Origin: Thermoplasmatota archaeon
Lineage (GTDB): Archaea > Thermoplasmatota > E2 > JACPAO01 > JAHFTW01
Assembly (NCBI GenBank): GCA_041600695.1
Contig: JBFIJP010000001.1
Coordinates: 1 to 55,374 of the forward strand
Length of the DNA stretch: 55,374 bases
Reading direction: 5' to 3'
The notes under the pieces are model-generated. The model was not told the origin of the DNA. It did no database searches and worked only from the letters and a program-made list of their open reading frames with translations. This document shows, piece by piece, positions 28,635 to 54,152 of this stretch; position 1 is the first letter of the stretch, and each line of letters begins with the position of its first letter. Both the position numbers and the translations under genes were made by a program.

Positions 28635-28744
28635 GAGCCCGTGAACCTTGACTTAAAGGTGCGTCGGTGGACCCCGGTTGGGCGCGAGCCTGTTGCCTGT
28701 TCGCCATCCAAAGGACTTTCATCCTGAATACTTCATCGAAGACC

Positions 28745-31700
28745 ATGTCCCACCAACGGTGCGCGACCAGCAAAGATGTCGGCTCGGTCGTTGTCCGAGT
28801 CCTCGGTGGGCATGACGCGCCGGTCGCCCGGGCGACGTGGCGCCCCGACGGTGCCCGTCTTGCAACCGGCAGCCGGGATGGAACCGCACGCATCTGGGAC
28901 GCGGCGTCCGGGAAGACCCTGCGGGTCCTACTTCGGCACCGAGGATCTGTGAGCACCCCAGCTTGGAGCCCAGATGGTGCCTACCTAGCCACGGGGAGCG
29001 CTGATGGCACCGCGCGCATCTGGCACGCCGGTTCGGGTCGATCCATCCACGTCTTGAGTGGTCACAAGGGCTCGGTAGGCTGGCCGGCTTGGAGCCCGGA
29101 CGGGACACGGCTAGCGACCGGTAGCGATGATGGAACAGCCCGCATTTGGGAAACAGCTTCGGGCAAGGCAATGCATGTCCTAGCCGATCACAAGGGGTGG
29201 GTAGGCTCGCCAACTTGGAGCTCCGACGGCACTCGTGTCGCGACGGGCAGCCGCGATGGTAAGGCACGCATCTGGGACGCATCCTCTGGCAAAGCCATCC
29301 ACCAGCTGTTGGGTCACAGTGGTTGGGCCTACGCACCCACATGGAGTCAGAAACGCAACTATGTCGCCACGGGCAGCCATGACGGCACAGCTCGCGTTTG
29401 GGATGCGGGGTCGGGAAACGTCGTCACGGTCCTTAGCGGCCACAAGGGCTGGGTGGGCTCGCCCAGTTGGAGCCCGGACGGTACGAGGGTGGCCACCGGG
29501 AGCCGCGATGGCACGGCGCGCATATGGGATGCCGCCTCAGGCCAAGCGATGCATGTGCTGACTGGCCACAAGGGATGGGTCGGGTCTCCATCATGGAGTC
29601 CAGATGGCACGTGCGTCGCAACCGGCAGCCGGGATGGTACGGCGCGGATTTGGGACACGGCGTCGGGCAAAGCAATTCACGTGTTGACGGGCCACACGGA
29701 TTGGGTGTATGCACCCACCTGGCACCCCGAGGGCGGTCAGGTCGCAACCGCTAGTCATGACGGAACGGCACGGATCTGGGATCTTGGGCTCGGACGGGAA
29801 CACGTTGATCCGAATAGAATCACGTGCCGCGTAGCCAAGATAGTATTAGTGGGGCACGAACGGGTAGGGAAGACGGGTTTGACGCGGGCCCTGGCGGGCA
29901 TGCCTTTCCAGGAAACCGGCCCGACGCACGGTCGGGACGTCCGCCTTTTTGATGATCGGATTTGCGAGCAATTGGCTACGCTTGCTCCGAACGACGAGCA
30001 GCGGGAAGCGTGGGTCTGGGATCTAGCAGGCCAAGCGGGCTACCGTATCTTTCATCAACAGCACCTTGACGATGCGGCCCTTGGAATCGTTGTTTTCAAC
30101 AACCAAGCAGGGGAGGATCCGTTTCCAGAAGTAGCATACTGGGCACGCGCCCTTGACGCTGCCAACCCAGGACCGCATTTCCGCAAGCTGTTAGTTTCTT
30201 CGCTTGCCGACATCAATGCCCCTCCCATAAACAAGGCGGACCTAGACAGGGCTCTCGATGAATTCGGATTCCAGGAGTTCCTGTCCGTGAGTGCCAAGGA
30301 ACCCTATCGAGCGGATACGCTGCCCGCCTTGGCGCGACGGGTCCGCGACGCAATCGCATGGCACGAACTGCCGAATTGGATACGAGATGGAGTTCTTCTC
30401 CAAGCTGAGGAGTTCCTCGCGTCCAAGCGAGATGGTGGATTAATTCTTGTAAAGGAAGCCACCCTGAGAGATGAGTTCGCCTCTAAGCACGGCGCGCCAA
30501 GTGAAGGTGCGGTTAGGCAGGCCCTGAGCGTTTTGGAACATTCGGGATTGGCCCGGCGACTCAGATTCCGGGATTGGGTGCTATTGCGCGCAGAGGTCCT
30601 CGACGCATACGGCGCTTGGATCGCAAGCGCCGCCCAAGACACGTCGCGTGATGGAGCAGGAACCATTCTCGAGCGCTCGGTGAATGACGCGAAGATACCG
30701 ATGGCCGCCGACCGACCACTGAAGGGTACAGACGCAGAAGATGTCCTGCTGCGGGCGACGGTAAACGATTTGCTAGACCGAGGCGTTGCTCTTCGGCAGG
30801 AGACCGAGGGCGGCGATATGCTCGTCTTCCCGGCCGAATTCAGTCGGCACCTGCCGGCCGAGGCCCCCGCGCTCGAACCCGCGGTTGCTTTCACATTCCA
30901 GGGGGACAAGGCTTCGATACATGCAACCCTAGCAGTGCGGTTGGCCAACGTCCCAATCTACCGAACCCCTTCGCCTCGCTTCTACCACAGCGCAGCGCTG
31001 TTCCAAGCTCCGGATGGGGCCACTTGCGGATTCCGTGTCGGGGAGGCAGACCCGCGTGATCAATCGAGCTGCCGGCTAACTGTAATGTTCAGCAAGGCGG
31101 TAAGATCCCAAACGAAGGCGGCGTTTCTGCGCTACGTGCGCCATCACCTAGACTCGCGAACGGGCCAAGAGCCCGCGGCAGCCGAAAGAATCTACGAGCA
31201 CTGCGACGAGAGGATATCGCCTCGCGTTGTGGCGAAGATCAGACGTCGGGGTCGCAATACCGTTCGCTGCCAGATTTGCGAGGCGACCTTATGCCTCGAT
31301 GATCTTGCTGGTGATATCGGACCGCTGGATACGAAAGGCGCGGCGCAATGGCGCGCTTCTGGAGAGGAGCAGGCTCGTCAAGCCCGGAAGACACTCGCCC
31401 CGGAGCGGATGGCTGCAGAGGAATTCGACTTGTTCCTCTGTCATAATAGCGCAGACAAATCTCAAGTCCAAGACATACAACGCCGACTTTTCGATCACGG
31501 TATTGTGTCATGGCTCGACAAGGAGCAGATCCTGAAAGGACGGCAATTTATTCCCATACTAGAACAAGCAATAGATCGCACCCCGAACGTCGCTGTGGTC
31601 GTCGGACCAGAGGGGCTGGGGCGTTGGCAGGAACAGGAATACTACGCATTCTTGCAGTTGTATGTCGAAGGACGTGATGACACGGATAAGAAACGGGTAC

Positions 31701-31876
31701 GAATATTCCCGATCCTGCTTCCGGGCGTTGAACGGAAACCGCATCTCCCAACCTTTCTCAAGGCATTCCATTGGGTTGATTTGCGCCGGAAGGGTGTTGA
31801 TGGTGACGCCGAAATCGGCGAATTCGCGCGTGCCATATTGCAGACCAATTCCCCGGACGACCCAGACCGGTTGTGA
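28745..31876 (+). CDS. Multidomain WD40 (x8) / Roc-type small GTPase / COR-like / TIR protein (1043 aa)
   Basis: aa 17-346: eight ~42-aa WD repeats (GH.G.V....WSPDGT..ATGS.DGTARIWD). aa ~364-525: P-loop KIVLVGHERVGKTGL, WDLAGQ (DxxGQ), LLVSSLAD (degenerate NKxD) and SVSAK. aa ~540-800: COR-like region. aa ~893-1030: TIR-like FDLFLCHNSADK...IVSWLD...VVVVGPEGLGRWQEQEY...RIFPILL. ATG at 28745. Confidence 0.85.
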   Translation: MSHQRCATSKDVGSVVVRVLGGHDAPVARATWRPDGARLATGSRDGTARIWDAASGKTLRVLLRHRGSVSTPAWSPDGAYLATGSADGTARIWHAGSGRSIHVLSGHKGSVGWPAWSPDGTRLATGSDDGTARIWETASGKAMHVLADHKGWVGSPTWSSDGTRVATGSRDGKARIWDASSGKAIHQLLGHSGWAYAPTWSQKRNYVATGSHDGTARVWDAGSGNVVTVLSGHKGWVGSPSWSPDGTRVATGSRDGTARIWDAASGQAMHVLTGHKGWVGSPSWSPDGTCVATGSRDGTARIWDTASGKAIHVLTGHTDWVYAPTWHPEGGQVATASHDGTARIWDLGLGREHVDPNRITCRVAKIVLVGHERVGKTGLTRALAGMPFQETGPTHGRDVRLFDDRICEQLATLAPNDEQREAWVWDLAGQAGYRIFHQQHLDDAALGIVVFNNQAGEDPFPEVAYWARALDAANPGPHFRKLLVSSLADINAPPINKADLDRALDEFGFQEFLSVSAKEPYRADTLPALARRVRDAIAWHELPNWIRDGVLLQAEEFLASKRDGGLILVKEATLRDEFASKHGAPSEGAVRQALSVLEHSGLARRLRFRDWVLLRAEVLDAYGAWIASAAQDTSRDGAGTILERSVNDAKIPMAADRPLKGTDAEDVLLRATVNDLLDRGVALRQETEGGDMLVFPAEFSRHLPAEAPALEPAVAFTFQGDKASIHATLAVRLANVPIYRTPSPRFYHSAALFQAPDGATCGFRVGEADPRDQSSCRLTVMFSKAVRSQTKAAFLRYVRHHLDSRTGQEPAAAERIYEHCDERISPRVVAKIRRRGRNTVRCQICEATLCLDDLAGDIGPLDTKGAAQWRASGEEQARQARKTLAPERMAAEEFDLFLCHNSADKSQVQDIQRRLFDHGIVSWLDKEQILKGRQFIPILEQAIDRTPNVAVVVGPEGLGRWQEQEYYAFLQLYVEGRDDTDKKRVRIFPILLPGVERKPHLPTFLKAFHWVDLRRKGVDGDAEIGEFARAILQTNSPDDPDRL

Positions 31877-43216: not shown

Positions 43217-45931
43217 CTACTGAACTGCCTGCGCGCCCGCCGCGACGCTCTGCCCCCGCCACGCCACCAGCCTGGCGCCCGTGCGGCCGCCGGCAACGTC
43301 CCGGCCCGCCAACTGTACCTGCACGGGGTCGCCCAGGCGGGCCCGGACCATGCGGGCCTCGCCCAGGTCGTCGTCAAACCACTCATCGAGCAGCTTGAGG
43401 TCCTCGGGATCGAAGCGCTGCGGTGCCTCAAGGTCGCTGAGGAAGAGCATGGATTCCCATTCGTCCACCTGGAAAGGGCCGCCGGGGAGGTCCCGGCTGC
43501 CGATGCGGGCGTCGATGCCGCGACCGACCTGGACGAACACGCTTGCGGGTGTAATTCCGGTGATGCGGGCCTTGGTGGTTTCCAGTGCGCCGCCACCGTG
43601 AAGGCTGGCCAGCACGAGGGCACTGGCCTTGATGCGGCGCTCCAACTGGTCCGCGGCCTGCTCCTGGTCGGAACAGTGGTCGCAGAGGCTGCGGAGGCTT
43701 TCGAGGTCGTGGGGCGGGGTACCCGACTCGGGGTCGCCCCCCTGGATCAGCCACTTGAGATTGCGGTGCACGACCAAGTCTGGGTAGCGCCGGATGGGGC
43801 TGGTGAAGTGGCCGTAATGGGTCGATGCGAGACCGAAGTGGCCCTGGTTTTCCGGCGCGTAATAGGCGCGGCCCATGGCGCCCAAGAGCTTGAACGTCGC
43901 CACTTCGGCCAGTTCGCGGTCCTTGATCTGAGACAGCAAGTCCACGGCCGCCCGGAAGGGGCGTAGCCACTGTTCTTGCTCCTCCTCGGACAGGGCAGCG
44001 AAGCCCTCGTCCTCTGGCTGTTCGTCTTCTTCCTCTTCCGGTTCTTCGGCCGTCTGGCCGGACAGGCCCATGCCGCCGCCGAACAGGTTGAGCTTGCCGC
44101 CGCCGGCCTTGAGTTGCTCCAGGAGGCTGTCGGCGGCCTGGCCTGCTGCCGCGGCCTTGGTAGCAGCCGCGCGCTTGGGGAGGCTCATGTCCACCTCGAA
44201 GCCCATGGTGGCCATCTGGTGCTGGAAGCGCTCCGCCTTGGCCGGGTCCGGCAGCGGGTGGCAGCGGTACAGGAGGCCCACGCCGCGCTCGTTGAGGTGC
44301 CGGGCGACCGCTTCGTTGGCGGCCACCATGAAGACCTCAATCATGCGCGTGGCGGGGTTGGCGTGCTTTTCGAGGGCCGAGAAACCGGATTCCTCCAGGA
44401 GAACCTTCAGTTCACCCGTTTCCAGGGCCAGGCCTCGCCGGTGGCTGCGCATCCGATCCGCTAGTTCGAGGAGGTTCTGGAAGTACGATTCGCCCGCCTC
44501 GGCGCGGCGAAGGGCGTCGTCGTAGGCCAGGTTTTCGGTGACCCGGATGAGGCTTGTGTGGAACGACGCGTGCTGCACGCGGCCTTGGGGATCGATGTCC
44601 ATGGCGACGCTGGAGGCGAACCGGTCGCCGTCGTCGCGCAGGCTGCACAGGTGGTCCGCGATACGGTGGGGCAGCATGGGCAGCACCCGTCCGGGCAGGT
44701 ACACGCTGGTGGCGCGCTTCTTGGCGTGCCGATCCAGCAGGGAGTCCTGCCGCACGTAATGGCTGACATCGGCGATGTGGACCCAGAGGCGCTGCCAGCC
44801 GGGGCCGCGGCCGGGCTCCTCGGACAGGTCGTCGATGCCCACGGCATCGTCGAAGTCCTTGGCATCCGGCGGGTCGATGGTGTAACAGGTCAGGTGGCGC
44901 AAGTCCTCCCGGCCGGGGTCGTCCTCCAGGCGGGGCTCCGGCAGGGCGTTGGCTGCGGCCTCGGCGTCGGGGTTCTCGACGTGCTCGAAGAAAGGCTCCT
45001 GATTGACGTGCCGCCGGGTCAGGCTGGCCACGGCCTGGTCGGCGTTCCACAGGCCCGATTCCAGCAGGAACTGCACGTAGTCGCTGCTCGTGGTGGTATG
45101 TTCGCCGCGAATCCAGTCCTGCGCGAGGAAACCCAGCGCCCGGTGCAGGTCCATCCCGAACACCCGCGTGGCGCCGAGACCGCCAATGCCGGCCACCGGC
45201 GCGCGGCCGTCGGGCACGCCGTCGTACTCCACGTACTGCTCCATGGCTGCGCGGGCCCACGTCATCGCGTCCCGGTCCGCTTCGTCAAGGCCGGCGGCAT
45301 CCAGTTCGATGCGCACGAACAGCCGCTCGCCCTCCTCATCCTCCTGGATGTCCACGAGTTTCTTGCGCAGAACCTGCAGCCGCTCCCAGGCCTCCCGCAT
45401 CTGCTGAACCTCGGCTCGGGTCCACGGCCGCCACGTGTCCCCCCGTCCGGCAACGGTCTCAAACCGGCCCGTGCCAGCCCGGCGGCAGCGAGCAAGCGCC
45501 TCCCGCACGTCCTTCAACTGCTGGCTGGACGGTTCCCGGTAGCGCGCCACGGCGATCTGTTCATCGGTCCACGGGTCCCCCGGCTGGCCCCCCGGTGGCC
45601 CATCGCAGGTCGCCTCCCACAGCGCCTCCTCCAGCGCGCCCAGATCGTCCTCGGCCTCCTCGGCCAGTCCTCCCTCAGCGTGCTGTGACAACAGGAAGCG
45701 CAGGCGGGCCTGGACTTCGTCTGCCTTAGCCAGCGGCCCCTCGTAGCGCTGCTTGAAAACACGGTGCGTGAGGCGGTCCCACCCGATCTCCTTCTCGCCC
45801 TCGACGGTCATCACGCGGGCGCGTACGACCCCCTTGCGGCGGGTCCGCTCCAGCAGGACCCCCAGGTTCTGGGGCGCCTCAATGCCGAAGAGGCCGCTGC
45901 GAAACTCCACCACGTCCCCGGGTTTGGCCAT
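43217..45931 (-). CDS. rnr: RNase R / RNase II-family 3'-5' exoribonuclease
   Basis: RNB-domain motifs TIDPPDAKDFDDAV, ADVSHYV, TSVYLPGRVLPMLP and HFGL....YGHFTSPIRRYPDLVVHR. C-terminal S1-like domain. ATG at 45931. Confidence 0.9.
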   Translation of the reverse strand: MAKPGDVVEFRSGLFGIEAPQNLGVLLERTRRKGVVRARVMTVEGEKEIGWDRLTHRVFKQRYEGPLAKADEVQARLRFLLSQHAEGGLAEEAEDDLGALEEALWEATCDGPPGGQPGDPWTDEQIAVARYREPSSQQLKDVREALARCRRAGTGRFETVAGRGDTWRPWTRAEVQQMREAWERLQVLRKKLVDIQEDEEGERLFVRIELDAAGLDEADRDAMTWARAAMEQYVEYDGVPDGRAPVAGIGGLGATRVFGMDLHRALGFLAQDWIRGEHTTTSSDYVQFLLESGLWNADQAVASLTRRHVNQEPFFEHVENPDAEAAANALPEPRLEDDPGREDLRHLTCYTIDPPDAKDFDDAVGIDDLSEEPGRGPGWQRLWVHIADVSHYVRQDSLLDRHAKKRATSVYLPGRVLPMLPHRIADHLCSLRDDGDRFASSVAMDIDPQGRVQHASFHTSLIRVTENLAYDDALRRAEAGESYFQNLLELADRMRSHRRGLALETGELKVLLEESGFSALEKHANPATRMIEVFMVAANEAVARHLNERGVGLLYRCHPLPDPAKAERFQHQMATMGFEVDMSLPKRAAATKAAAAGQAADSLLEQLKAGGGKLNLFGGGMGLSGQTAEEPEEEEDEQPEDEGFAALSEEEQEQWLRPFRAAVDLLSQIKDRELAEVATFKLLGAMGRAYYAPENQGHFGLASTHYGHFTSPIRRYPDLVVHRNLKWLIQGGDPESGTPPHDLESLRSLCDHCSDQEQAADQLERRIKASALVLASLHGGGALETTKARITGITPASVFVQVGRGIDARIGSRDLPGGPFQVDEWESMLFLSDLEAPQRFDPEDLKLLDEWFDDDLGEARMVRARLGDPVQVQLAGRDVAGGRTGARLVAWRGQSVAAGAQAVQ

Positions 45932-46033
45932 GCGCGGGTGCCGGCAGCCGACGGCCCATCCTAACGCCTTCGTTGAGCGATCGCCGGGGTTCACCTCCAA
46001 ACGCTTTTGCCCCGCGGCCCGGCTGGGGCATCC

Positions 46034-47074
46034 ATGCGAGCCGTTCCCGTCCTGTTGATTCTCGTGGCGACAGCCCTAGCCGGCTGTTCAGACTCGGCGC
46101 CCGCGGGAGCCACCGCCCGCCAACTTCTGGCAACAGCGGACGCCGAAGCCCAGGCCTGGAACCCGGCGGCAACCCTGGTCGCCGTCCAGGCGGTTGAATT
46201 GCACGAAGCCATGGAAGACGAGGGCGAGGACGACGACCCCTTCTTTACGGCGGCCAACCGCGCCGACCCCGCGGTGGGCAACGGCCGGGCGGCAGCCTGG
46301 GCTTATGAATACAAGAGGAGCGACTCCGATGAGCGGTTCCAGGTTGTCGTTGATGAAGACGGAAAGGCGCAGACATCCGCCGGCGGGGACGGAGACGACT
46401 CCCCGTTTGGCGGCGAGCCAATCGGTAGCTGGCGCGTCGATTCGGACCAGGCCGCCCGCACGTTGCGCCGCGAAGCGTCCGACTTCTCCCAGCGGGCCGC
46501 CGACGAGGATGCCATCGTCCTGTGGACCCTGGGCCGGGAAAACGCCACGGCCGATGCCGTCTGGGCAACCGTCGTTTTCAGCATCGCCGACGGAGCCGAG
46601 GATGTCCGGATCTTCATCGTCGGAGCAGTCAACGGTACCTACCTGGGGAGTTTCAGCCTGGAGGACTTTGTGCTCCGGTTCAGTCTGCCGCCTCAGGAGT
46701 GGGGTTCCTTCAGCGAGCAGCTCACAACAGCCACTCCGGCTGCCATGCACAGCTTCAACATTGACCACGAGGGCCACGAGCGACTGAACGTGATCGTTCG
46801 CAGTGCAGATCCCACGGTCGGGTCCACGTTGAACATCACGATCCTCCAAGGGGATGTCCTCCGGTTTGCGGGCGACCTGGAGTCAGGCCTGCTGTCCGAA
46901 AGCCTCGTGAAGACGTTCTTCCTGCCGGCGAACGCCCCCTTGGTCGGAACATGGACCGTTCAGGTGGCCCTCACCGAGGGCCTCGCGCAAGGCTACGAGG
47001 TCTTGTGGTGCGCCCCGGGCCTCACCGTAACCATCGACCAGCCCCCATTCAGCCAGGATACCGCCTGCGACTAG
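46034..47074 (+). CDS. Lipoprotein of unknown function (paralogue of 42117-43127)
   Basis: Signal plus lipobox LVATALAGC. It is acidic and shares N-terminal (W.P.A.LV) and C-terminal (WT..V.L..G....YEV.WCA.G) blocks with 42117-43127. Confidence 0.65.
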   Translation: MRAVPVLLILVATALAGCSDSAPAGATARQLLATADAEAQAWNPAATLVAVQAVELHEAMEDEGEDDDPFFTAANRADPAVGNGRAAAWAYEYKRSDSDERFQVVVDEDGKAQTSAGGDGDDSPFGGEPIGSWRVDSDQAARTLRREASDFSQRAADEDAIVLWTLGRENATADAVWATVVFSIADGAEDVRIFIVGAVNGTYLGSFSLEDFVLRFSLPPQEWGSFSEQLTTATPAAMHSFNIDHEGHERLNVIVRSADPTVGSTLNITILQGDVLRFAGDLESGLLSESLVKTFFLPANAPLVGTWTVQVALTEGLAQGYEVLWCAPGLTVTIDQPPFSQDTACD

Positions 47075-47292
47075 CGCAGTCCACTACGAAGGGCGGCCAG
47101 CGCCTCGTAAGGGCGCTCGGGCTTGACCCCGCCACTGGCCAGCAGGACGCCGAATACACCGAGTTCGATGGCTTTGGCGACGTGACAGGCGCCGCACGGC
47201 GGGACCTCATCCGGGTTCTTCGGTGGGCCTTTATAGCGCTGGTCGAACACCCGGATTCGGCACTGGGAATTCTCTTGGGTCCGGCAGGGTTT
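47071..47292 (-). pseudogene. Possible remnant of a CMP/dCMP-type zinc deaminase gene (open frame with no ATG and an upstream in-frame TGA)
   Basis: The minus frame reads ..TQENSQCRIRVFDQRYKGPPKNPDEVPPCGACHVAKAIELGVFGV...*. It has PCxxC followed by AKAI..G, and an E-N pair exactly 26 residues before the first Cys, as in HAE.N...PCxxC deaminases, but His is replaced by Thr. Very tentative. Confidence 0.2.
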
Positions 47293-47436
47293 TCAATTCA
47301 AGGCCTGACGTACGTACAACGGTCGAACTCAACCGCGCCGACCACAGGGAGCCGTCGGTTGGAGTGATTTGTTCGAAGGCGGGGGAGGTCACGATTCTCG
47401 GCGTCTACAATTTGCTATCGTGATTCTCTTGCCCCA

Positions 47437-48510
47437 TCAATTTGGGGTCCACCATGGCAGCGTGCAGTTCCCGGACTTGTCGGTTATTATCGCAACACTT
47501 TGAGCGGCGCGGGTTACGGCGACGTAGAAACATGCGGCCGGTATGGCATCGAGCCCCTTGTTATGTTGTAAGAATTGCCGGATGCCCGCGGTGGGGACAA
47601 TCAGAATTCGCTCGTGTTCGGTCCCCTTCGATATTTTGAAGTTCGTGAACCGCAGATTGTATTCTTTTCCCGAGGCAACGCTATGTCTTAGACAATGCGG
47701 GCCGAACGTGTCCACGTATTCGTAAATATGGTCTGGGTGAACTAAGAATAGCCCATCGTGGCCCGTTTCTTTCACGTTGTGGGTTTCGGTTGCTGGAAAA
47801 TCCCAGAGATGGGCGAAAATCGTGTCCGCGAATTTCGCTATTTCGCCGTGGCATCGCCAAGTGGTTGATTGGAACTCGATTTCCAGTGTGCCTGCATCGA
47901 CCCGCTCCTGGAACCAATCCATTGCCCCTGCGTAGGCATAGGCGCTGTTCTTTTTGCTTCGTGGATTAGTTGCCAATACCGCTTGGCGAACGTCGCCCAC
48001 CATTCGGATATGAATGGCTGATTTGAACAAATGGTCAAGAATGTCCCAGTCGTGCGCACTAAGGTCCTGAACTTCATCAATCAGGATTTCATCATATAGT
48101 GCCTCGAGCCGGTTCATCAGAGCCCCGCCCGCCAATCCAACCAATTCGCTAGAAAGGCGCCCAAGTTCGCAAGCGTAAACAGCGCCACTGGCGTCAAGGA
48201 ATCGCGCTGCCCCTGATGCCTTGAAATGTGGTCGACCTTCGAAATTGAATCCCCTGACTCGCAGGCCAGGAAATTTGAATGGGATAAACGGCCGGGCAAA
48301 GTGGCGCAGCAGGAATGTAAACCAGCCCATTACCTCCAGATGGGAGTGGTCGCCTGCAACCCCTCGCAAGCGTTCCTTCAAAACGCTTTGATTAGCGGTC
48401 GTGAAGGTCAAGACAAGGATTTTTCTGTCTCGCGGCGCATCGGCACAATGTTGGACCAGGCTCGTGGTTTTTCCTGACCCGGCGACGGCCAATTCAAGAC
48501 TATTGGGCAT
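47437..48510 (-). CDS. gajB: Compact UvrD-like SF1 helicase, GajB-like
   Basis: AVAGSGKTT (motif I), ILIDEVQDLS (II), MVGDVRQAV (III), SKGTEHERILIV (V) and YVAVTRAAQSVAII (VI). Only 357 aa. Its start overlaps the stop of the upstream OLD-type gene by 11 nt. Confidence 0.8.
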   Translation of the reverse strand: MPNSLELAVAGSGKTTSLVQHCADAPRDRKILVLTFTTANQSVLKERLRGVAGDHSHLEVMGWFTFLLRHFARPFIPFKFPGLRVRGFNFEGRPHFKASGAARFLDASGAVYACELGRLSSELVGLAGGALMNRLEALYDEILIDEVQDLSAHDWDILDHLFKSAIHIRMVGDVRQAVLATNPRSKKNSAYAYAGAMDWFQERVDAGTLEIEFQSTTWRCHGEIAKFADTIFAHLWDFPATETHNVKETGHDGLFLVHPDHIYEYVDTFGPHCLRHSVASGKEYNLRFTNFKISKGTEHERILIVPTAGIRQFLQHNKGLDAIPAACFYVAVTRAAQSVAIITDKSGNCTLPWWTPN

Positions 48511-50104
48511 GGATGAACTCCGCCGCCGCGGAAAGGTATGCTGGTGGGTTGAGTGCTTCCGTCGACGTGGCTATCCTGAGTGCGCCTTCCGTTTTTTCAC
48601 GACCCATCCATGTAGTGAGGTTTGCGTGGTCCGTGATTCCGAGCAGGCTACGCATCGCGGGTTCTCCATTTGCATGGACGAGTTGGGGCTCTAGCGTCCG
48701 GCCGGATGCAACGTCTCCAATAAACACCTCTCGACGTCCACCCACCAGCCACTGGGCAAGGGAAGTTCTCAGCGTTTCTGGTTCAGCACCATCGTTGTCA
48801 AGCACTACGGCCACAACCTTGTCCAGGGCGGCGCACAGTTCCAAACACTTGGCGGCTGAAAGACTCTTCATGCTGAGGACGTCAGTGCCGTGATCCAGTG
48901 GGCTGGCGCCAAATTTGTCCCGATATATGCGTTCAAAGATTATTTCGTCCGATGGGCCCTCCACTAGAACCAATTTCTTGGAAAGTGCAATCCGCAAGGT
49001 GTCGTAGCCGGGGAGTTTTTGGAAGTAATTGGCCGTACTTGGGTCCATTTCCGGGATTCGTGGGGCGTTTCCAGGCCCCATTAGGAAAAGCCGATCAAGC
49101 CGCAAGCGATTCAGTAAAAACGAATTGTGCGTTGCTATGAACACCTGTTGCCCATCAGCCGCTAGGTGTTCTATCTTTGACACAAGCGACACGAGAGCAG
49201 GGTATGCCAAATGGTTCTCGGGTTCCTCTATCATGACTATGTTCGCTTTATCCTGTTGCTGATGCATCGCTAGGGATATTTTGATGGCCGCTTGCTGTCC
49301 TTGTCCGGACATTGCGAATGGCACGCCGTCGACGTGGGGTGCGATGGAATTTTGCCACGATGCCCGGGCGCTTTGGTCTACGGCAAGTGTGATTGGCTTG
49401 TCATGAAGGGCTGTTTGGGCGGCTGAAATGCGCGCGTTTACCTCGTCCAAGGGGGGTGACGCGACGTTTTCCCGGCTTTGACGGAACGCAAGCGAAATGG
49501 CCGCCCGCTCTGCCGGTTCGAGAAAATCATTGAGAATGTCCCTGAGATGGAAATCAATCCCCGCAGTTGAACGGACTGTTCGCGAGTCAATAATCGCGGT
49601 CGCAAGGGGTCGTGGGCGCCGTAGTAAAGGGTCGTCAGCGAAACTTCTCCAAACCACCGAGTAGTATTCGATGGGAAGAATTGGCGAGGGATTGTTGGCC
49701 CAGAGTTCAAAATCGTCGGCAAATTCCGGATTCAGTACGACACTAAGGGCGACACCCGGACATGCATTGGTTGGCACGTCGCTGTTTATTGCGCCAGTAA
49801 GTCGCTGCAAATCTCCCCTATCCTGGAGGAAAACCTCGATGTGTATCTCGGGCGGGGGTGCAGCAATTCCTGATTTTCGGGCCTCCAAAAAAGCCTGAAC
49901 ATGACTCTTGTTGAACCAAAATGGATTCAGGTCGTCCGCTGCTCTCCGTCCATTCAGTCGCCCTGTGAGGGCAAGAATCATCGACTCCATTAGGGTTGAT
50001 TTACCGCTTTCGTTGGCGCCAACGATAAGGTTGAACCCTTCATTAGGGTGAAACTCGAATGACTGGAAAATTCGGTAACCCGAAATCTTGACCTTGGAAA
50101 TCAT
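48500..50104 (-). CDS. gajA: OLD-family ATPase-TOPRIM nuclease, GajA-like
   Basis: N-terminal ABC-type ATPase with GANESGKST (Walker A), MSGQGQQAAIKISLA, VMIEEPENHL (Walker B) and FIATHNSFLL. C-terminal TOPRIM with LVLVEGPSDEIIFERIY and VAVVLDNDG. Confidence 0.85.
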   Translation of the reverse strand: MISKVKISGYRIFQSFEFHPNEGFNLIVGANESGKSTLMESMILALTGRLNGRRAADDLNPFWFNKSHVQAFLEARKSGIAAPPPEIHIEVFLQDRGDLQRLTGAINSDVPTNACPGVALSVVLNPEFADDFELWANNPSPILPIEYYSVVWRSFADDPLLRRPRPLATAIIDSRTVRSTAGIDFHLRDILNDFLEPAERAAISLAFRQSRENVASPPLDEVNARISAAQTALHDKPITLAVDQSARASWQNSIAPHVDGVPFAMSGQGQQAAIKISLAMHQQQDKANIVMIEEPENHLAYPALVSLVSKIEHLAADGQQVFIATHNSFLLNRLRLDRLFLMGPGNAPRIPEMDPSTANYFQKLPGYDTLRIALSKKLVLVEGPSDEIIFERIYRDKFGASPLDHGTDVLSMKSLSAAKCLELCAALDKVVAVVLDNDGAEPETLRTSLAQWLVGGRREVFIGDVASGRTLEPQLVHANGEPAMRSLLGITDHANLTTWMGREKTEGALRIATSTEALNPPAYLSAAAEFIHAQ

Positions 50105-50135
50105 CCCGCCGACCTGGCGGTGACACGGTTGGTCC

Positions 50136-50145
50136 CATTATATGC
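50136..50145 (-). promoter_or_regulatory. TATA-box-like element upstream of the gajA-like gene
   Basis: The minus strand reads gcATATAATggg, centred ~36 nt upstream of the ATG at 50104. This is a position-based guess only. Confidence 0.25.
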
Positions 50146-50916
50146 TCGCCTACCCCGCCGTCGAACTCGCCTTATGCGCATCAAGAGCAATCACGGCTCT
50201 CACGTTCTTCACCTGCCCGACGACCGGCACGGATCGTCAGCACGTGTCCGGTCAATGGCCCAACGACACGCTGGGATCGCAGCACTGGGACAGGGCCCAC
50301 GGCAGACGTACATTACCACTTTTTAGACGGCGTCCGCAGCTCCGGACGGAGAACGTTTTTTGGTGAACTGGCTGGCCTGGAACCCCGGTCTCCGGCTCCG
50401 AGTGAACCTGCAAGCTAGCGCCGTTCACCAGCGCCCGAGATGTAGCCTGTAGGCAATCATCGTGTGCGTAGGCGAACAATTGACGCGGCGCTGGCGCATC
50501 CTATGCAGGAAACGTAATCGATTAAGATGGTCAATGCGGACATGATTCCCGTCAAGTCCGTATTCACCAAGGCACGGCGCTGACGACGGCTTGTTTTTGG
50601 TCAATCAATCCCATAGAGCAATCCTAAGGCCAAGGCAGGTCGCTTCGGCCATTTAGGTGCTGGGCACGCAATCACCCCTCGAGGTTTCTCAACCGACTTG
50701 CTGGCGCGTCCAAAACGTGGAGCCACGGTTGTTCTTCGCACACCTGCGATCCTCCGGGGAGGTTCGATGTCACCGGGCCCATGGGCTAGCGCCCGCATAC
50801 CGCCACACATCAACCGACCGGCAACCCACAGTGACGAAGAAGACGGCGCGGCGGGTTCGCGGGTCGGCTGGATGTAATTGTTATGCGCCCTTCACCACCT
50901 TTTCGACAAAAAATTC

Positions 50917-51402
50917 CTAGCTGCAAGCGCCCATCCACTGACAGATTTCATTCGCAACGGCACCTGTGCCCTGAGAGATTACGGCGCCCAACCCTCTAAG
51001 AAATGTTAGGGCTGCTTCAACGTCCACGCCAGCGAAGTCTGCCAAGGCAACCACTACTCCTGACTCTGGAGTAAGTGCTGCAAGACCGGCCACCCCGACA
51101 ATAACAATTGCAGCTGCGACGGTATAAGCCCCAACCTTGCACCAAGTGCAGCCAGCCCCACCTGTCAACACTTCCCTATGGGCTGCTGATAGCTGGTCTT
51201 CGGAGGCTTCCCTGAGTCGGGCGACAAGATCTCCAGCGACTTCCTTAAAGTAGCTATTGAATCCCTCATCGTCACCTTTGGGCAGGCTAAGGCCGTTACG
51301 CCGAAAGGCAGCGGCTGGGTCGGCTAAGCATTGCTCTGCGTTAGTCTTACTTGCGAATGCATCCTTTATCGTTCTTGCTACGATCTTCATTTCACCGGAC
51401 AT
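50917..51402 (-). CDS. Orphan 161-aa protein with one central TM helix and 4 Cys
   Basis: AGGTGA lies 3-4 nt before the ATG at 51402. The soluble N-terminal ~85 aa is followed by CTWCKVGAYTVAAAIVIVGVAGLAAL, and the protein ends in CQWMGACS. I recognise no family. Confidence 0.5.
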   Translation of the reverse strand: MSGEMKIVARTIKDAFASKTNAEQCLADPAAAFRRNGLSLPKGDDEGFNSYFKEVAGDLVARLREASEDQLSAAHREVLTGGAGCTWCKVGAYTVAAAIVIVGVAGLAALTPESGVVVALADFAGVDVEAALTFLRGLGAVISQGTGAVANEICQWMGACS

Positions 51403-51698
51403 AGTTCACCTGCCTTTTCTTCCGTGGTCGTTTAGTTACATCGTCGCTCATCTCTAACCGAATAGCGCGGCGGATAAGGGTTATGGGCCGGAACACGGGG
51501 TGGTGGCCCAGCGAGCGTAGCGAACGATGCCGTGTTCTTGCTTGCCGCAGGCTTTGGCGAGGAATTGCCCTCTAGTATATCTTCCGGTATATGGTAACTA
51601 CTCGCCGAGTGCCGATGAAATCTTGCTAAATGTTGCGAAATTGCCTACAGCTTGAGTAGTAGACCTTGACGCTGAATTCGGGTTGATGTCAAGTGCTC

Positions 51699-52049
51699 TC
51701 AGATAAGCATGACGCGGATGTTGTGGCGGCTCTTTTTTCTTTTTATTTCATTGGCTCGCGCGGTCGGTGTGCGGCTGCCAAGGCGGTCGCCGAATGCGCC
51801 TTTGGTCATCGCGAAGGTGGTCTCCATGAGGCTACGCTGCGCAATGAGTTCCTGAAAACGATTTGGGAATTGGCGGCCAAATCGGACGCCCTTTTCATAA
51901 TCGATACGGGCAAAGCAAGCCCATTTGGCATTGCTCCTGGGCCGATGAAGGGGTCGTGCTCCACGCTGGCTGGCAATGGCCATACAGGCTTGATTGGCGT
52001 ATTGCTGGGCACGGTGATCGCGCAGAAGCCAGGCATGAAAACGATTCAA
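51699..52049 (-). mobile_element. C-terminal remnant of a DDE (IS4/IS5-like) transposase gene
   Basis: ...RGARPLHRPRSNAKW....IDYEKG.....RSLMETTFAMTKGAFGDRLGSRTPTARANEIKRKKSRHNIRVMLI* fits the common transposase C-terminus Y..RS.VET.F...K..FG..L.S.T...Q.NE....(L.HN)I..LI. I found no matching intact N-terminal part or inverted repeats. Confidence 0.6.
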
Positions 52050-52554
52050 CAGGTGACGGAACCGACGGCTGCGATTCCTGCGACTCAGCGTTGTCGCATC
52101 ATACGTTTATTGGAAGCCCATGAAATCACTGGGGCGCAGCCCCGGCATCGTCAGGATTTGGTGCAGCACATCCTGAAATCAGGAGCAGCCCCGCGAGCGC
52201 GGCGGCCCTCAAGGTGGCGGGCTTCGGCGGTCGCGTGCCGCCGAACCACCGAATCCAGTTCCCTCCATGTTTGACGTCCACCTGGGACGTAATCGCGATG
52301 ACCTACAAGGTCCTTTGCCGTTCGCAATGGTGAAGCAGCGGACCGCGCCGCCGAACAGGGTCCGGGGGGGGGCGGTTGCGCGTCCGTAGCGGCATCTAGA
52401 TCGCGCGCCGCTCCTCCTGGGGCTCCCCGGAGTGGAGGAGCCGTCGACCCAAGGACTCAACGGGCGGCGTTGTGCTCGCCCTTGCGATGGCCTCCCGCCC
52501 GGGCGTTTCCGGTGGGTGCGTGGCTGGTGCGCCGCCTGCTGCCTGGGTCTAAGA

Positions 52555-53226
52555 ATGGCGAAGCAATGGCACCCGTCGATGTACGACCTTCCCTATCACA
52601 AGGAGCCAGATGAAGAGATCATCCGGCAATTCATCCGGGACCACCCCTTTGCCCTGGTGTCCGGCGTCGACGCGCAGCATCGACCGGTGGCCACGCAGGT
52701 TCCGGTTCTGATGGAAGAACGCGACGGCCGTTACGTGCTTCGCGGCCACATCATGCGAAACACCGACCATCATGGCGCCTTTGCAGCCAATGAGAATGTG
52801 CTGGTGGTGTTCATGGGAAAGCATGCGTACGTGAGCGGAAGCTGGTATCGTGACCCCCACACGCCATCGACCTGGAATTACATGAGCGTCCACGCAAGGG
52901 GGACCATTCGCTTGCTCGACGGGGCGGCCATCGATGAGGTCCTCCGGGAGGCGAGCCTGCACTTTGAAGGGCAGGACGGGGCGTCGGCAACCATTTTTGA
53001 CAACCTGCCCCCGGACCTCAGGGCACGATTAACCAAGGCCATCTTGGCTTTCGAGATTCATGTGACCGACATCGACACGGTGTTCAAATTGAGCCAGGAT
53101 CGGGATCGTGACAGCTACATGAAAATCATGGAAAAATTGAAGGAAAAGGGGTCCGATGGCAAGACGGTTGCTGCCGAGATGGAAAAAAGAATGAGTCGAG
53201 TTTTTGCTACAGATGAATTGGCATGA
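52555..53226 (+). CDS. paiB: PaiB-family FMN-binding putative transcriptional regulator
   Basis: MYDLPYHKEPDEEIIRQFIRDHPFALV...ATQVPVL...L.GH.MRNTDH...VVF.G.HAYVS.SWY..P..PSTWNY..VHA.G...LSQDR is the PaiB pattern. ATG at 52555. Confidence 0.8.
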   Translation: MAKQWHPSMYDLPYHKEPDEEIIRQFIRDHPFALVSGVDAQHRPVATQVPVLMEERDGRYVLRGHIMRNTDHHGAFAANENVLVVFMGKHAYVSGSWYRDPHTPSTWNYMSVHARGTIRLLDGAAIDEVLREASLHFEGQDGASATIFDNLPPDLRARLTKAILAFEIHVTDIDTVFKLSQDRDRDSYMKIMEKLKEKGSDGKTVAAEMEKRMSRVFATDELA

Positions 53227-53705
53227 TGGCCACGATCCATCGCTGGCCAATGAATGAAAAAACCCGACATATCTCCATCCAATCCGTGGTTCTTGCGTGC
53301 CCGCCCGAAGTCCAGGTTAAGGCATTTGATCTGCACTGGAGTTTTCGCGACGGAAGCACATGGACTCTTCCGTGATTCGCAAACCATGGCACGAATACGA
53401 AACCTTACGAAACCTGCCGGGACCAGAGATATCAGGGTTATGTTGGTGCAGCCAGAAGCCATCTGTCTGCTGGACCCGTCGTGATTGAATAGGAAATCGC
53501 GACAACGAGCCATCCCAGACCAAAGATTCTATCTTGCCGGCCGTCTGTCCTTTGTTGACGGAAAAGGCCAACGCTGAAATCATCGGGCGCTGCCGGGAAA
53601 GAGCCGCCAATGGATCAATCATCTCCGAGCAGATTTCCCGACAATAACGATCAATTTCGGTCGTGTGGTGATGGCCGGTTTCGCCACGAAATGGCAGATG
53701 GAGGA

Positions 53706-54152
53706 ATGAAAATGGAATTGAAACAGCAAATCGTAAGTCGGGAGATCATTGCACACGAATTCATGGTTGCGACCCACGGCAAACTGGACCCGGAAAGAAT
53801 CGATGCCGCCATGGCAGCCATTACGGCGGCCGACACCAGCTTTCCGGCAAACGGCAGCGTCGCGAGCTTCATCTTTTACCTGCAATTTCAGGTGAATGTG
53901 ACGGGTGGGAAATCCTTCAACGGCAAGGCTGGTGGCGTGTCATCGCCTGGCGGCGGAGCCCTGATCGGCGACCTCTACACGGACGACATCGACCGCTTGT
54001 ACCGTGACACGGTCAGTTTCGAATTCCAGGCGACCCCGGTCTACACGAGCCTGCTGTTCTTCGACAGCGACAGCAACCTGCTTGGGCATTTCCAGGCCGG
54101 AGCCGTTTCGACGGTGGCCGGTGTTGGCGGCGGTAGCGGCAGTTGGTCGTGA
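53706..54152 (+). CDS. VapA/Vap-family (Rhodococcus equi virulence-associated protein family) beta-barrel protein with no signal peptide
   Basis: The C-terminal half FNGKAGGVSSPGGGALIGDLYTDDIDRLYRDTVSFEFQATPVYTSLLFFDSDSNLLGHFQAGAVSTVAGVGGGSGSWS closely parallels my recollection of VapA (FDGDAGG..PGAGAFWGTLFTNDLQRLYKDTVSFQYNAVGPYLNINFFDSSGSFLGHIQSGGVSTVVGVGGGSGSW). GGAGG precedes the ATGs at 53706 and 53712. Confidence 0.7.
   Translation: MKMELKQQIVSREIIAHEFMVATHGKLDPERIDAAMAAITAADTSFPANGSVASFIFYLQFQVNVTGGKSFNGKAGGVSSPGGGALIGDLYTDDIDRLYRDTVSFEFQATPVYTSLLFFDSDSNLLGHFQAGAVSTVAGVGGGSGSWS

Follow-up and report, generated by a model that had tools for sequence, protein, structure and literature searches.

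Two overlapping genes lie on the minus strand of the window (the whole 55,374 nt stretch of DNA that was analysed). The gajA-like gene (positions 48500–50104, minus strand) encodes a 534-residue protein of the OLD family, and the gajB-like gene (positions 47437–48510, minus strand) encodes a 357-residue compact SF1A UvrD-like helicase/ATPase. The end of gajA overlaps the beginning of gajB by 11 nt (positions 48500–48510, minus strand), so the ORF coordinates agree with the initial annotation of the locus, which had described a 534-residue ATPase–TOPRIM gene overlapping a 357-residue SF1 helicase gene by that amount. The overlap suggests translational coupling; the junction is similar in related loci, where the overlap is mostly 4 nt. 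The start codons of both genes are correct, because the N-termini align from residue 1 with those of homologues.

Both proteins match Gabija models of PADLOC from end to end, with equal lengths and architecture. The GajA-like protein aligns with PDLC00098 over residues 1–531 (profile positions 2–534 of 534; 644 bits, E = 3.7e-194) and the GajB-like protein aligns with PDLC00140 over residues 1–355 (profile positions 1–360 of 365; 440 bits, E = 2.2e-132). Matches of this strength are far beyond chance, and together with the predicted folds, for which B. cereus GajA and GajB are the best matches in the PDB, they bear out the proposal that the locus is a Gabija-like module.

The GajA-like protein (positions 48500–50104, minus strand) is composed of an N-terminal ABC-type ATPase domain with a dimerization insert, a C-terminal TOPRIM nuclease domain and a short helical tail, as assigned from Pfam (AAA_15, AAA_23 and OLD-like_TOPRIM) and Foldseek. 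Its AlphaFold model aligns best with the GajA chains 8u7i_A, 8sm3_A and 8x5i_D (E = 2e-17 to 8e-16), followed by the class 1 OLD protein of Thermus scotoductus (TsOLD; PDB 6p74), while a single-sequence search of the PDB gave no match. In length the protein is class 1-like (534 residues, compared with 528 in TsOLD and 578 in B. cereus GajA). Class 2 OLD proteins exceed those of class 1 by approximately 50 residues because their C-terminal helical domain is larger, with 90 residues in BpOLD (BpOLD and XccOLD; Schiltz et al., 2019; PMC6755086), whereas the tail in our model has approximately 64 residues, with five helices over residues 471–533. Residues Thr506 and Glu508 of BpOLD, a Thr-x-Glu motif that opens the helical domain, and Lys562 have plausible counterparts in T470-L-E472 and Lys504. 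These are invariant in the family, which suggests, from the sequence alignment, that the helical domain may be present in a compact form. A profile restricted to the TOPRIM C-terminal region of the protein, compared with BpOLD, XccOLD and TsOLD, gave as its sole match 24 residues around the GajA catalytic Glu, and no sequence match to the BpOLD or XccOLD C-terminal structures was obtained from the C-terminal profile even at E ≤ 10.

The AlphaFold model of the GajB-like helicase (pLDDT 86) aligns best with GajB in the PDB (8tk1_F; E = 2e-14) and then with Rep, UvrD and PcrA. A single-sequence search of the PDB with the helicase gave no match, and B. cereus GajB was absent from the family-profile matches to the PDB at E ≤ 1. 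Pfam identifies UvrD-helicase and AAA_19 domains, with no match to UvrD_C. The predicted model has 1A and 2A cores and a 1B-like insert of approximately 77 residues (positions 63–139) and is without a 2B sub-domain. Only 12 residues separate the strands at 272–275 and 288–290, the site occupied in B. cereus GajB by a C-terminal accessory (2B) sub-domain of 103 residues (residues 314–416; PMC10681800), and in a profile alignment to UvrD 106 residues of the helicase lie opposite approximately 300 residues of UvrD. The protein thus lacks the four-sub-domain layout (1A, 1B, 2A and 2B) of B. cereus GajB, a layout that is typical of the characterized member rather than a formal definition. The suspicion that both accessory sub-domains might be missing therefore holds for 2B but not for 1B, as a 1B-like insert is retained. 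In the absence of 2B, both the regulation of the helicase and its contacts with duplex DNA probably differ from those of the B. cereus enzyme.

The helicase had been noted as unusually short and as a possible minimal variant. It is indeed short, but it is neither peculiar nor new: more than 1300 homologues share a length of 356–365 residues, and this size is the norm of a large sub-family already covered by PADLOC models (profiles of 365 and 534 positions). A truncated pseudogene was ruled out, as the protein is of full length relative to these homologues.

The motifs named from the DNA alone (ABC ATPase, TOPRIM and helicase motifs I, II, III, V and VI) were all found, and all lie in alignment columns that are invariant over 25–30 homologues. 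In the OLD protein these are the Walker A (GANESGKST), signature (SGQGQQ), Walker B (VMIEEPE) and H-loop (ATHN) motifs of the ATPase and the TOPRIM motifs LVEGPSDE and LDNDG; in the helicase they are AVAGSGKT (I), IDEVQD (II), VGDVRQ (III), SKGTEHERILIV (V) and YVAVTRAAQS (VI). Loss of the TOPRIM catalytic acidic residues had been raised as a concern, but the alignment shows that all are retained (Glu382, Asp386, Glu387, Asp436 and Asp438), as is the Walker A Lys35, and Glu382 pairs with the catalytic Glu379 of B. cereus GajA in a family-profile alignment. The GajA-like protein thus has both the full set of ABC-ATPase motifs and an entire two-metal TOPRIM site. In the helicase Gly11, Lys14 and Thr15 and the stretch D145-E146-V-Q148-D149 are invariant in the homologue alignment. 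The residues that are required for defence in Gabija (the Walker A Lys and TOPRIM Glu of GajA, Lys35 and Glu379 in B. cereus, and the Walker A motif and DExQ box of GajB) all have counterparts here.

The closest characterized system is the Gabija of B. cereus VD045 (GajA of 578 and GajB of 494 residues; PDB entries 8SM3, 8U7I, 8TK1 and 8X5I), which shares the gajA–gajB gene order. Its GajA is likewise an ABC ATPase with an inserted dimerization region and a TOPRIM domain, and its GajB also belongs to the SF1A UvrD-like proteins and has a 1B-type insert; in the solved complex the 1B sub-domain contacts GajA (PMC10781630). The differences are considerable: the identity in the Foldseek alignments is only 13–18%, the GajA here is 44 residues shorter, the GajB is 137 residues shorter with no room for 2B, and the host is archaeal. 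UvrD-like helicases that lack 2B are already known in defence systems. The UvrD-like core of DarH in the DarHTG system (PMC13069673) is likewise without 2B, as is an engineered Rep, and 2B, although it has been implicated in the binding of dsDNA, is dispensable for helicase activity (PMC13069673). The partners of DarH are the DarT/DarG toxin–antitoxin proteins rather than an OLD nuclease, and the likeness is one of description and not of sequence comparison.

The compact form of Gabija, in which a GajA of approximately 533 residues is paired with a GajB of approximately 357 residues without 2B, is represented by 248 clusters (50% identity, E < 1e-30) in a search of a representative library. 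Synteny was examined in 81 loci, including 80 related genomic loci, and the OLD gene lies directly upstream of the helicase gene, on the same strand and in the same order, in 74 of them. The loci come from Proteobacteria, Actinobacteria, Verrucomicrobiota, Nitrospira, Gemmatimonadota and others, and the pairwise distances of GajA and GajB are strongly correlated (r = 0.95). The two genes evolve together, and their order, lengths and junction are conserved over many bacterial phyla. Rather than a set of truncations, compact Gabija forms a coherent sub-family that is both large and deep. No structure of the compact form is present in the PDB, and no functional study of any member of the sub-family was found in the literature. 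A compact pair is carried by the E. coli plasmid p14EC033d; however, the Walker A Lys of its GajA is at position 37, as counted on the translation, compared with 35 in the ECOR49 mutants, and this pair could therefore not be linked to the ECOR49 Gabija.

The pair lies in an island of lower G+C content (positions 47150–54000, no strand; approximately 0.56 compared with 0.67), with high-G+C DNA on both sides. As the initial annotation had noted, both genes are richer in AT than their flanks: the G+C content of the pair is 0.533, compared with 0.667 for contig positions 1–47100, and GC3 is 0.56–0.57, compared with 0.79–0.86 in the adjacent host genes. An independent Logan assembly crosses both island junctions. 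No integrase, tRNA or att-type flanking direct repeat bounds the island. The rest of it consists of small ORFs without family assignment, none of which is conserved beside the pair in the other loci examined or matches PADLOC. Upstream of gajA a weakly indicated promoter-like element, TCGACG-16-TATAAT (positions 50137–50164, minus strand), ends 33 nt before the ATG; it has 10 of 12 matches, and the region contains three such sites where 2.1 are expected by chance. This candidate promoter is bacterial in type (σ70-like), although its TATAAT may double as an archaeal TATA box.

These features bear on whether the pair works in its present host. It could be silent cargo, that is, a recently arrived bacterial cassette with an intact sequence that is not expressed, or is unable to work, in an archaeon. 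The unameliorated composition, the σ70-like character of the sole promoter-like element, the unassigned small ORFs that make up the remainder of the island and the fact that neither the 80 genome loci kept nor the named protein matches include an archaeal relative would all fit this explanation. However, both ORFs are of full length with every invariant catalytic column intact, whereas at 62–66% identity to the nearest relatives an unselected gene should show stops or motif losses, and the TATAAT, at 33–40 nt upstream of the ATG, could act as an archaeal TATA box. We consider silent cargo to be unlikely.

The nearest relatives of the pair are only 62–66% identical, and all named relatives are bacterial, mostly from Proteobacteria; relatives were found on 77 plasmids, 58 of which are conjugative or mobilizable. 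In a tree the pair is placed inside a clade that is mainly proteobacterial. Foreign composition and this phylogeny among bacterial sequences agree with the earlier suggestion of horizontal acquisition, the source most likely being a bacterium. Phylogenetic placement, which had been recommended as a means of finding the donor, gave bacterial and mainly proteobacterial surroundings, but the nearest relatives are too distant for the donor lineage to be named. Compared with the nearest known relative in the sub-family modelled by PADLOC, the copy in the window is 34–38% diverged and lies in an archaeal contig, whereas the named members are bacterial.

A third explanation is that the pair serves the cell in repairing DNA or maintaining the chromosome rather than in defence, as reported for the class 5 OLD ATPase Cran1 of Sulfolobales. 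Cran1 is a precedent for an archaeal OLD-family protein with a non-defence role (PMC12796447), and UvrD-like helicases are classical repair enzymes. A maintenance function is nevertheless highly improbable: the host lineage does not conserve the pair, which is absent from the available DNA of relatives whose RNase R is 88% or 66% identical; the pair occurs patchily, often on plasmids, and has a foreign composition; and it matches the Gabija models and is without the conserved membrane-protein partner of the Cran1-type context.

The host assignment depends mainly on one gene, that of the flanking RNase R, which is 60–63% identical to proteins of many Thermoplasmatota metagenome-assembled genomes (MAGs) and closest to them overall, in keeping with the earlier view that this is probably an archaeal genome. 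Pfam and NCBIfam scans of 20 ORFs of the window identified metabolic genes, none of them decisive as a marker of archaea, and the window contains neither rRNA nor tRNA genes nor a universal marker gene of archaea. A notion that an acidic salt-in proteome would be unsuited to a bacterial protein was dropped, as the host pI is approximately 5–6 and not extreme. The paucity of markers, the reliance on RNase R and a close RNase R match that is labelled 'bacterium' could be taken to indicate that the archaeal assignment is an artefact, the contig being either bacterial or a chimera of archaeal DNA with a bacterial fragment. Against this, the island lies between high-G+C DNA on either side, a separate Logan assembly reproduces both of its junctions, many independent MAGs of Thermoplasmatota and Thermoplasmata supply the named RNase R relatives, and the contig that encodes the 66%-identical RNase R also carries clearly archaeal genes (archaeal-type FEN1, HMG-CoA reductase and PheRS-β). 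The chance of an artefact thus seems very small. The evidence supports a transfer between domains, into an archaeon, because the named relatives of the pair are bacterial and the RNase R is closest to those of Thermoplasmatota archaeal MAGs.

Other OLD-containing systems were also compared. The OLD-family profile matches TsOLD (528 residues; PDB 6P74; E = 1.6e-10) slightly better than it does GajA (E = 4e-9), the Foldseek scores of the two are comparable and there are weak, partial PADLOC matches to AriA, but TsOLD is encoded by a stand-alone gene, whereas the OLD gene here is strictly linked to a helicase gene. PARIS comprises an AriA without a TOPRIM domain and a separate TOPRIM/DUF4435 protein, AriB, while class 3 OLD proteins of the retron Eco8 type are adjacent to a reverse transcriptase and a retron ncRNA; no Rfam family, and hence no retron RNA, has a match in the window, and no reverse transcriptase is found among the neighbouring genes. 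The idea that the locus is PARIS, a retron-associated OLD or a stand-alone class 1 OLD with a helicase adjacent by coincidence is effectively refuted by the conserved synteny described above. The coevolution of the two proteins, the fusion of TOPRIM to the ATPase with a helicase as partner and the AriA match, which, in the comparison with AriA and AriB that had been advised, is confined to residues 257–330 at 69 bits against 644 for GajA, also speak against it.

We therefore favour, with a probability of roughly 80%, the identification of the locus as a horizontally acquired Gabija system (class 2 OLD and UvrD-like helicase) of the compact sub-family. It is a further member of a sub-family that defence databases already model and not a new system. 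That it is active in antiviral defence in its archaeal host is somewhat favoured on balance, the function being inferred from homology. By analogy with the B. cereus system (PMC10781630, PMC8136825 and bioRxiv 10.1101/2023.05.02.539174), GajA would oligomerize through its ATPase insertion, and GajB would dock onto GajA by its 1B-like insert. A GajA4–GajB4 complex may form, for which the coevolution of the two proteins (r = 0.95) offers indirect support, and protection would depend on both genes. Nucleotide bound at the GajA ATPase would hold off the TOPRIM nuclease until, on infection, nucleotide depletion or exposed DNA ends allowed GajA to nick or cleave DNA; DNA ends would also stimulate GajB to hydrolyse (d)ATP and (d)GTP, and viral replication would be blocked.

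The contribution is modest and holds no point that will surprise specialists, as Gabija is already known from nine archaeal phyla (PMC12881386). It does provide a clear case in which a cassette otherwise found in bacteria and on conjugative plasmids is now in a probable Thermoplasmatota chromosome with its composition unameliorated. Self/non-self discrimination by Gabija has been linked to RecBCD (PMC12407980). RecBCD is the complex that was recently proposed to shield host DNA ends from Gabija. Archaea are not known to possess RecBCD, and the locus raises the question of how Gabija discriminates between self and non-self in a cell without it. A more speculative possibility, which we regard as doubtful, is that the compact sub-family, with its 2B-less GajB and class 1-length GajA, is regulated unlike the Gabija of B. 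cereus or P. aeruginosa and that the copy described here is antivirally active in Thermoplasmatota. If this were so, self would be told from non-self in a different manner once Gabija had crossed between domains.

The two genes lie on the minus strand and share 11 nt, a gajA-like reading frame of 534 aa (48500-50104) being followed by a gajB-like helicase gene of 357 aa (47437-48510). The ORF list and translations bear out the sizes, overlap and motifs described in the initial annotation: the larger protein carries GANESGKST, SGQGQQ, VMIEEPE, ATHN, LVEGPSDE and LDNDG, and the smaller AVAGSGKT, IDEVQD, VGDVRQ and YVAVTRAAQS. Both proteins align end to end with PADLOC models, namely GajA PDLC00098 (E = 3.7e-194; residues 1-531 of the 534-aa protein, model of 534 positions) and GajB PDLC00140 (E = 2.2e-132; residues 1-355 of the 357-aa protein, model of 365 positions). 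The next-best PADLOC families are much weaker; PARIS AriA, which had been named as the alternative to exclude, reaches 69 bits over residues 257-330 only. The Pfam matches are AAA_15, AAA_23 and OLD-like_TOPRIM for the ATPase and UvrD-helicase and AAA_19 for the helicase, with UvrD_C absent from the latter; no NCBIfam model is specific to either protein.

Single-sequence searches against solved structures gave no match for either protein. A profile of 25 OLD homologues reached the class 1 OLD of Thermus scotoductus (6P74; 1.6e-10) and Bacillus cereus GajA (4e-9), aligning E382 with the catalytic E379 of the latter; a profile of 30 helicase homologues matched UvrD, Rep and PcrA at ~1e-7 and did not reach GajB. 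Although sequence similarity to solved structures is thus low, the picture at the level of the predicted fold is clearer. The helicase model (pLDDT 86) has GajB as its top PDB match (chain 8tk1_F, E = 2e-14), ahead of Rep, UvrD and PcrA, whose query TM-score is ~0.68. The OLD model (pLDDT 71, poor at residues 160-270) best matches GajA (8u7i_A, 8sm3_A and 8x5i_D; E = 2e-17 to 8e-16), followed by TsOLD and retron Eco8.

Linkage was assessed in GTDB using one genome per species, which gave 134 helicase relatives, 80 loci of which were kept; a Logan copy of the window locus (L001) brought the set to 81. In 74 of these the gene immediately upstream, in the same orientation, encodes an OLD homologue, usually with a 4-nt overlap at the junction; most of the others are truncated or lie at contig ends. 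Pairwise GajA and GajB distances correlate strongly (r = 0.95, 73 loci), and none of the other ORFs in the surrounding low-G+C island recurs beside the pair elsewhere. The locus is a two-gene system.

The helicase had been flagged as unusually short and possibly a minimal variant, with a truncated pseudogene named as an outcome that would count against the proposed module. A word-indexed search returned 1354 helicase relatives, the best 120 of which are mostly 355-383 aa (longest 393 aa; query coverage 99-100%), and 1466 OLD relatives, nearly all of 533 aa. An exhaustive search of 50%-identity representatives gave 961 helicase clusters at E <= 1e-3, of which 248 passed 1e-30; full-length members are mostly ~340-400 aa even at ~30% identity. 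Truncation is ruled out by these same-length relatives and by a 30-sequence alignment in which the window helicase is collinear from Met1 to the C-terminus with all invariant columns intact. It is indeed short, but the compact form is already represented in defence databases: of the PADLOC GajB models with hits, two have lengths of 365 and 369 and the others 431 to 663, and the matching GajA models are also the shortest (534 and 532, versus 570-709), which places the locus in a compact Gabija sub-family. The exact architecture of the window pair is thus already modelled in PADLOC; our searches turned up neither a structure of this sub-family nor a functional test. An even more compact pair is present on the Escherichia coli plasmid p14EC033d (NZ_CP024151.1, 1767-4336), where a 520-aa ATPase-TOPRIM protein and a 340-aa helicase (27% identity to the window helicase) overlap by 16 nt; the plasmid is conjugative and of the IncF type, and a VapBC toxin-antitoxin module flanks the pair on either side. 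Both are annotated only as 'hypothetical protein', which shows that the short-helicase form is widespread and under-annotated.

BcGajB, the B. cereus helicase, comprises an N-core (residues 1-72 and 156-222), an N-accessory domain or 1B (73-155), a C-core (223-313 and 417-494) and a C-accessory domain or 2B (314-416) (PMC10681800). In the window helicase model, residues 63-139 form a helical, 1B-like insert of ~77 aa between core strands, and just 12 residues separate strands 272-275 and 288-290 of the C-terminal RecA-like core. Motifs III to V span 106 residues, against ~300 in UvrD, in the profile alignment. From this gap and this length difference, read from the model rather than by superposition, 2B is probably absent and the 1B-like insert retained, so that the earlier suggestion that both might be missing would hold for 2B alone. 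The main GajA-GajB contacts in the B. cereus complex run via 1B (PMC10781630), and its retention would therefore preserve the GajA-docking part. As 2B is implicated in duplex binding yet dispensable for helicase activity, according to work cited in PMC13069673, its loss suggests altered helicase regulation. UvrD-like helicases lacking 2B occur in other defence systems, for example DarH (PMC13069673).

The ATPase and TOPRIM motif columns of the OLD protein show no variation among 25 homologues, and the loss of TOPRIM acidic residues that would have spoken against the Gabija module is not seen. Class 2 OLDs are described as ~50 aa longer than class 1, and a 90-aa helical domain of BpOLD gives the active-site residues T506, E508 and K562 (PMC6755086). 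By contrast, the window protein has a class 1-like length of 534 aa and a modelled helical tail of ~64 aa (residues 471-533). Its invariant T470-L-E472 and K504 are plausible counterparts of the BpOLD residues, judging from the alignment; a C-terminal-only profile gave no match reaching the Bp, Xcc or Ts structures. Class 2 OLDs nest inside class 1 diversity in a published phylogeny (PMC12796447), so length is no sharp criterion, and judged by genomic context (a tandem helicase) the protein qualifies as class 2.

The G+C content drops from ~0.67 to ~0.53-0.57 across roughly 47.15-54.0 kb. The pair has a G+C of 0.533 and a GC3 of 0.56-0.57, versus 0.86 and 0.79 for the two adjoining host genes, in agreement with the AT-richness noted initially. 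Named relatives are all bacterial (Burkholderiales, Pseudomonas, Halomonadaceae, Xenorhabdus, Sorangium, Nitrospira, Verrucomicrobiota, Actinobacteria and others). Relatives are carried by 77 PLSDB plasmids (34 conjugative, 24 mobilizable); GenBank phage records contain none, and IMG/VR has only two full-length copies. A neighbour-joining tree built on the concatenated proteins places the pair with two metagenomic contigs and a Marinobacter MAG, nested in a clade of ~60 mainly proteobacterial sequences; the nearest relatives (62-66% identity) lie in DNA of 42-52% G+C. Composition and tree together uphold the proposed horizontal acquisition. High-G+C DNA bounds the island on both sides, a separate Logan assembly shows the same arrangement, and the adjacent RNase R (43217-46000) is 60-63% identical to proteins of many MAGs labelled Thermoplasmatota/Thermoplasmata archaeon; another contig, whose RNase R has 66% identity, also encodes archaeal-type FEN1, HMG-CoA reductase and PheRS-beta. 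These findings give good support to the transfer of a bacterial-type cassette into a Thermoplasmatota genome. The adjoining lipoprotein gene (46007-47074; L001 11440-12504) shows 99.4% protein identity between the assemblies, a difference that points to strain-level variation in the sample and not to two identical assemblies.

The island has no integrase or tRNA gene and no repeats at its borders. A sigma-70-like TCGACG-16-TATAAT element (50137-50164, minus strand) ends 33 nt upstream of the gajA start, its TATAAT lying 33-40 nt before the ATG. The element is compatible with a bacterial promoter; in this contig, otherwise archaeal, the TATAAT could also function as a TATA box of the archaeal type. 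Similar sites are no more frequent in the region than chance predicts. The calculated pI of the helicase is 6.8 (73 helicases, window copy included: median 8.6, range 6.2-9.4) and host proteins are mostly at pI 5-6; the lower value may reflect some host adaptation or chance. The remaining island ORFs, none with a PADLOC match, encode proteins of 161 aa (50917-51402, minus) and 94 aa (51699-51983, minus) without family assignment, an FMN_bind_2 protein (52432-53226, plus) and a 146-aa R_equi_Vir-like protein (53712-54152, plus); a higher-G+C patch lies at ~52.0-52.7 kb.

Two further loci in the window have partial or weak matches to defence models. An 805-aa KAP-family P-loop NTPase (10191-12608, minus; PF07693, 3e-30), 35 kb from the pair, partially matches PADLOC PifA (3.6e-29) and QatA and may be a stand-alone defence NTPase; synergy with Gabija has been reported for KAP NTPases such as tmn. 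A 1069-aa WD40-repeat protein (28667-31876, plus) weakly matches SAVED_TIR (TIR-containing, 4.6e-6) and the candidate PDC-S66 (4.9e-6) in PADLOC at its C-terminal residues ~902-998. Its gene falls in a second compositionally atypical region (~30-33 kb, G+C 0.55-0.61), which may be another acquired element.

Archaeal Gabija systems have been reported before, among them those in cold-seep MAGs of nine archaeal phyla (PMC12881386). By homology, GajA would form an oligomer kept inactive by bound nucleotide, with GajB docked via the 1B-like insert; upon infection the TOPRIM domain would nick or cleave DNA, and DNA ends would stimulate GajB to hydrolyse (d)ATP and (d)GTP (PMC8136825; bioRxiv 10.1101/2023.05.02.539174; PMC10781630). 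An alternative described in Pseudomonas aeruginosa is the non-abortive targeting of linear DNA ends without RecBCD occupancy (PMC12407980). Archaea are not known to possess RecBCD. What the analysis shows for the window pair is that its catalytic parts are present and intact; its assembly, activation and antiviral effect are inferred.
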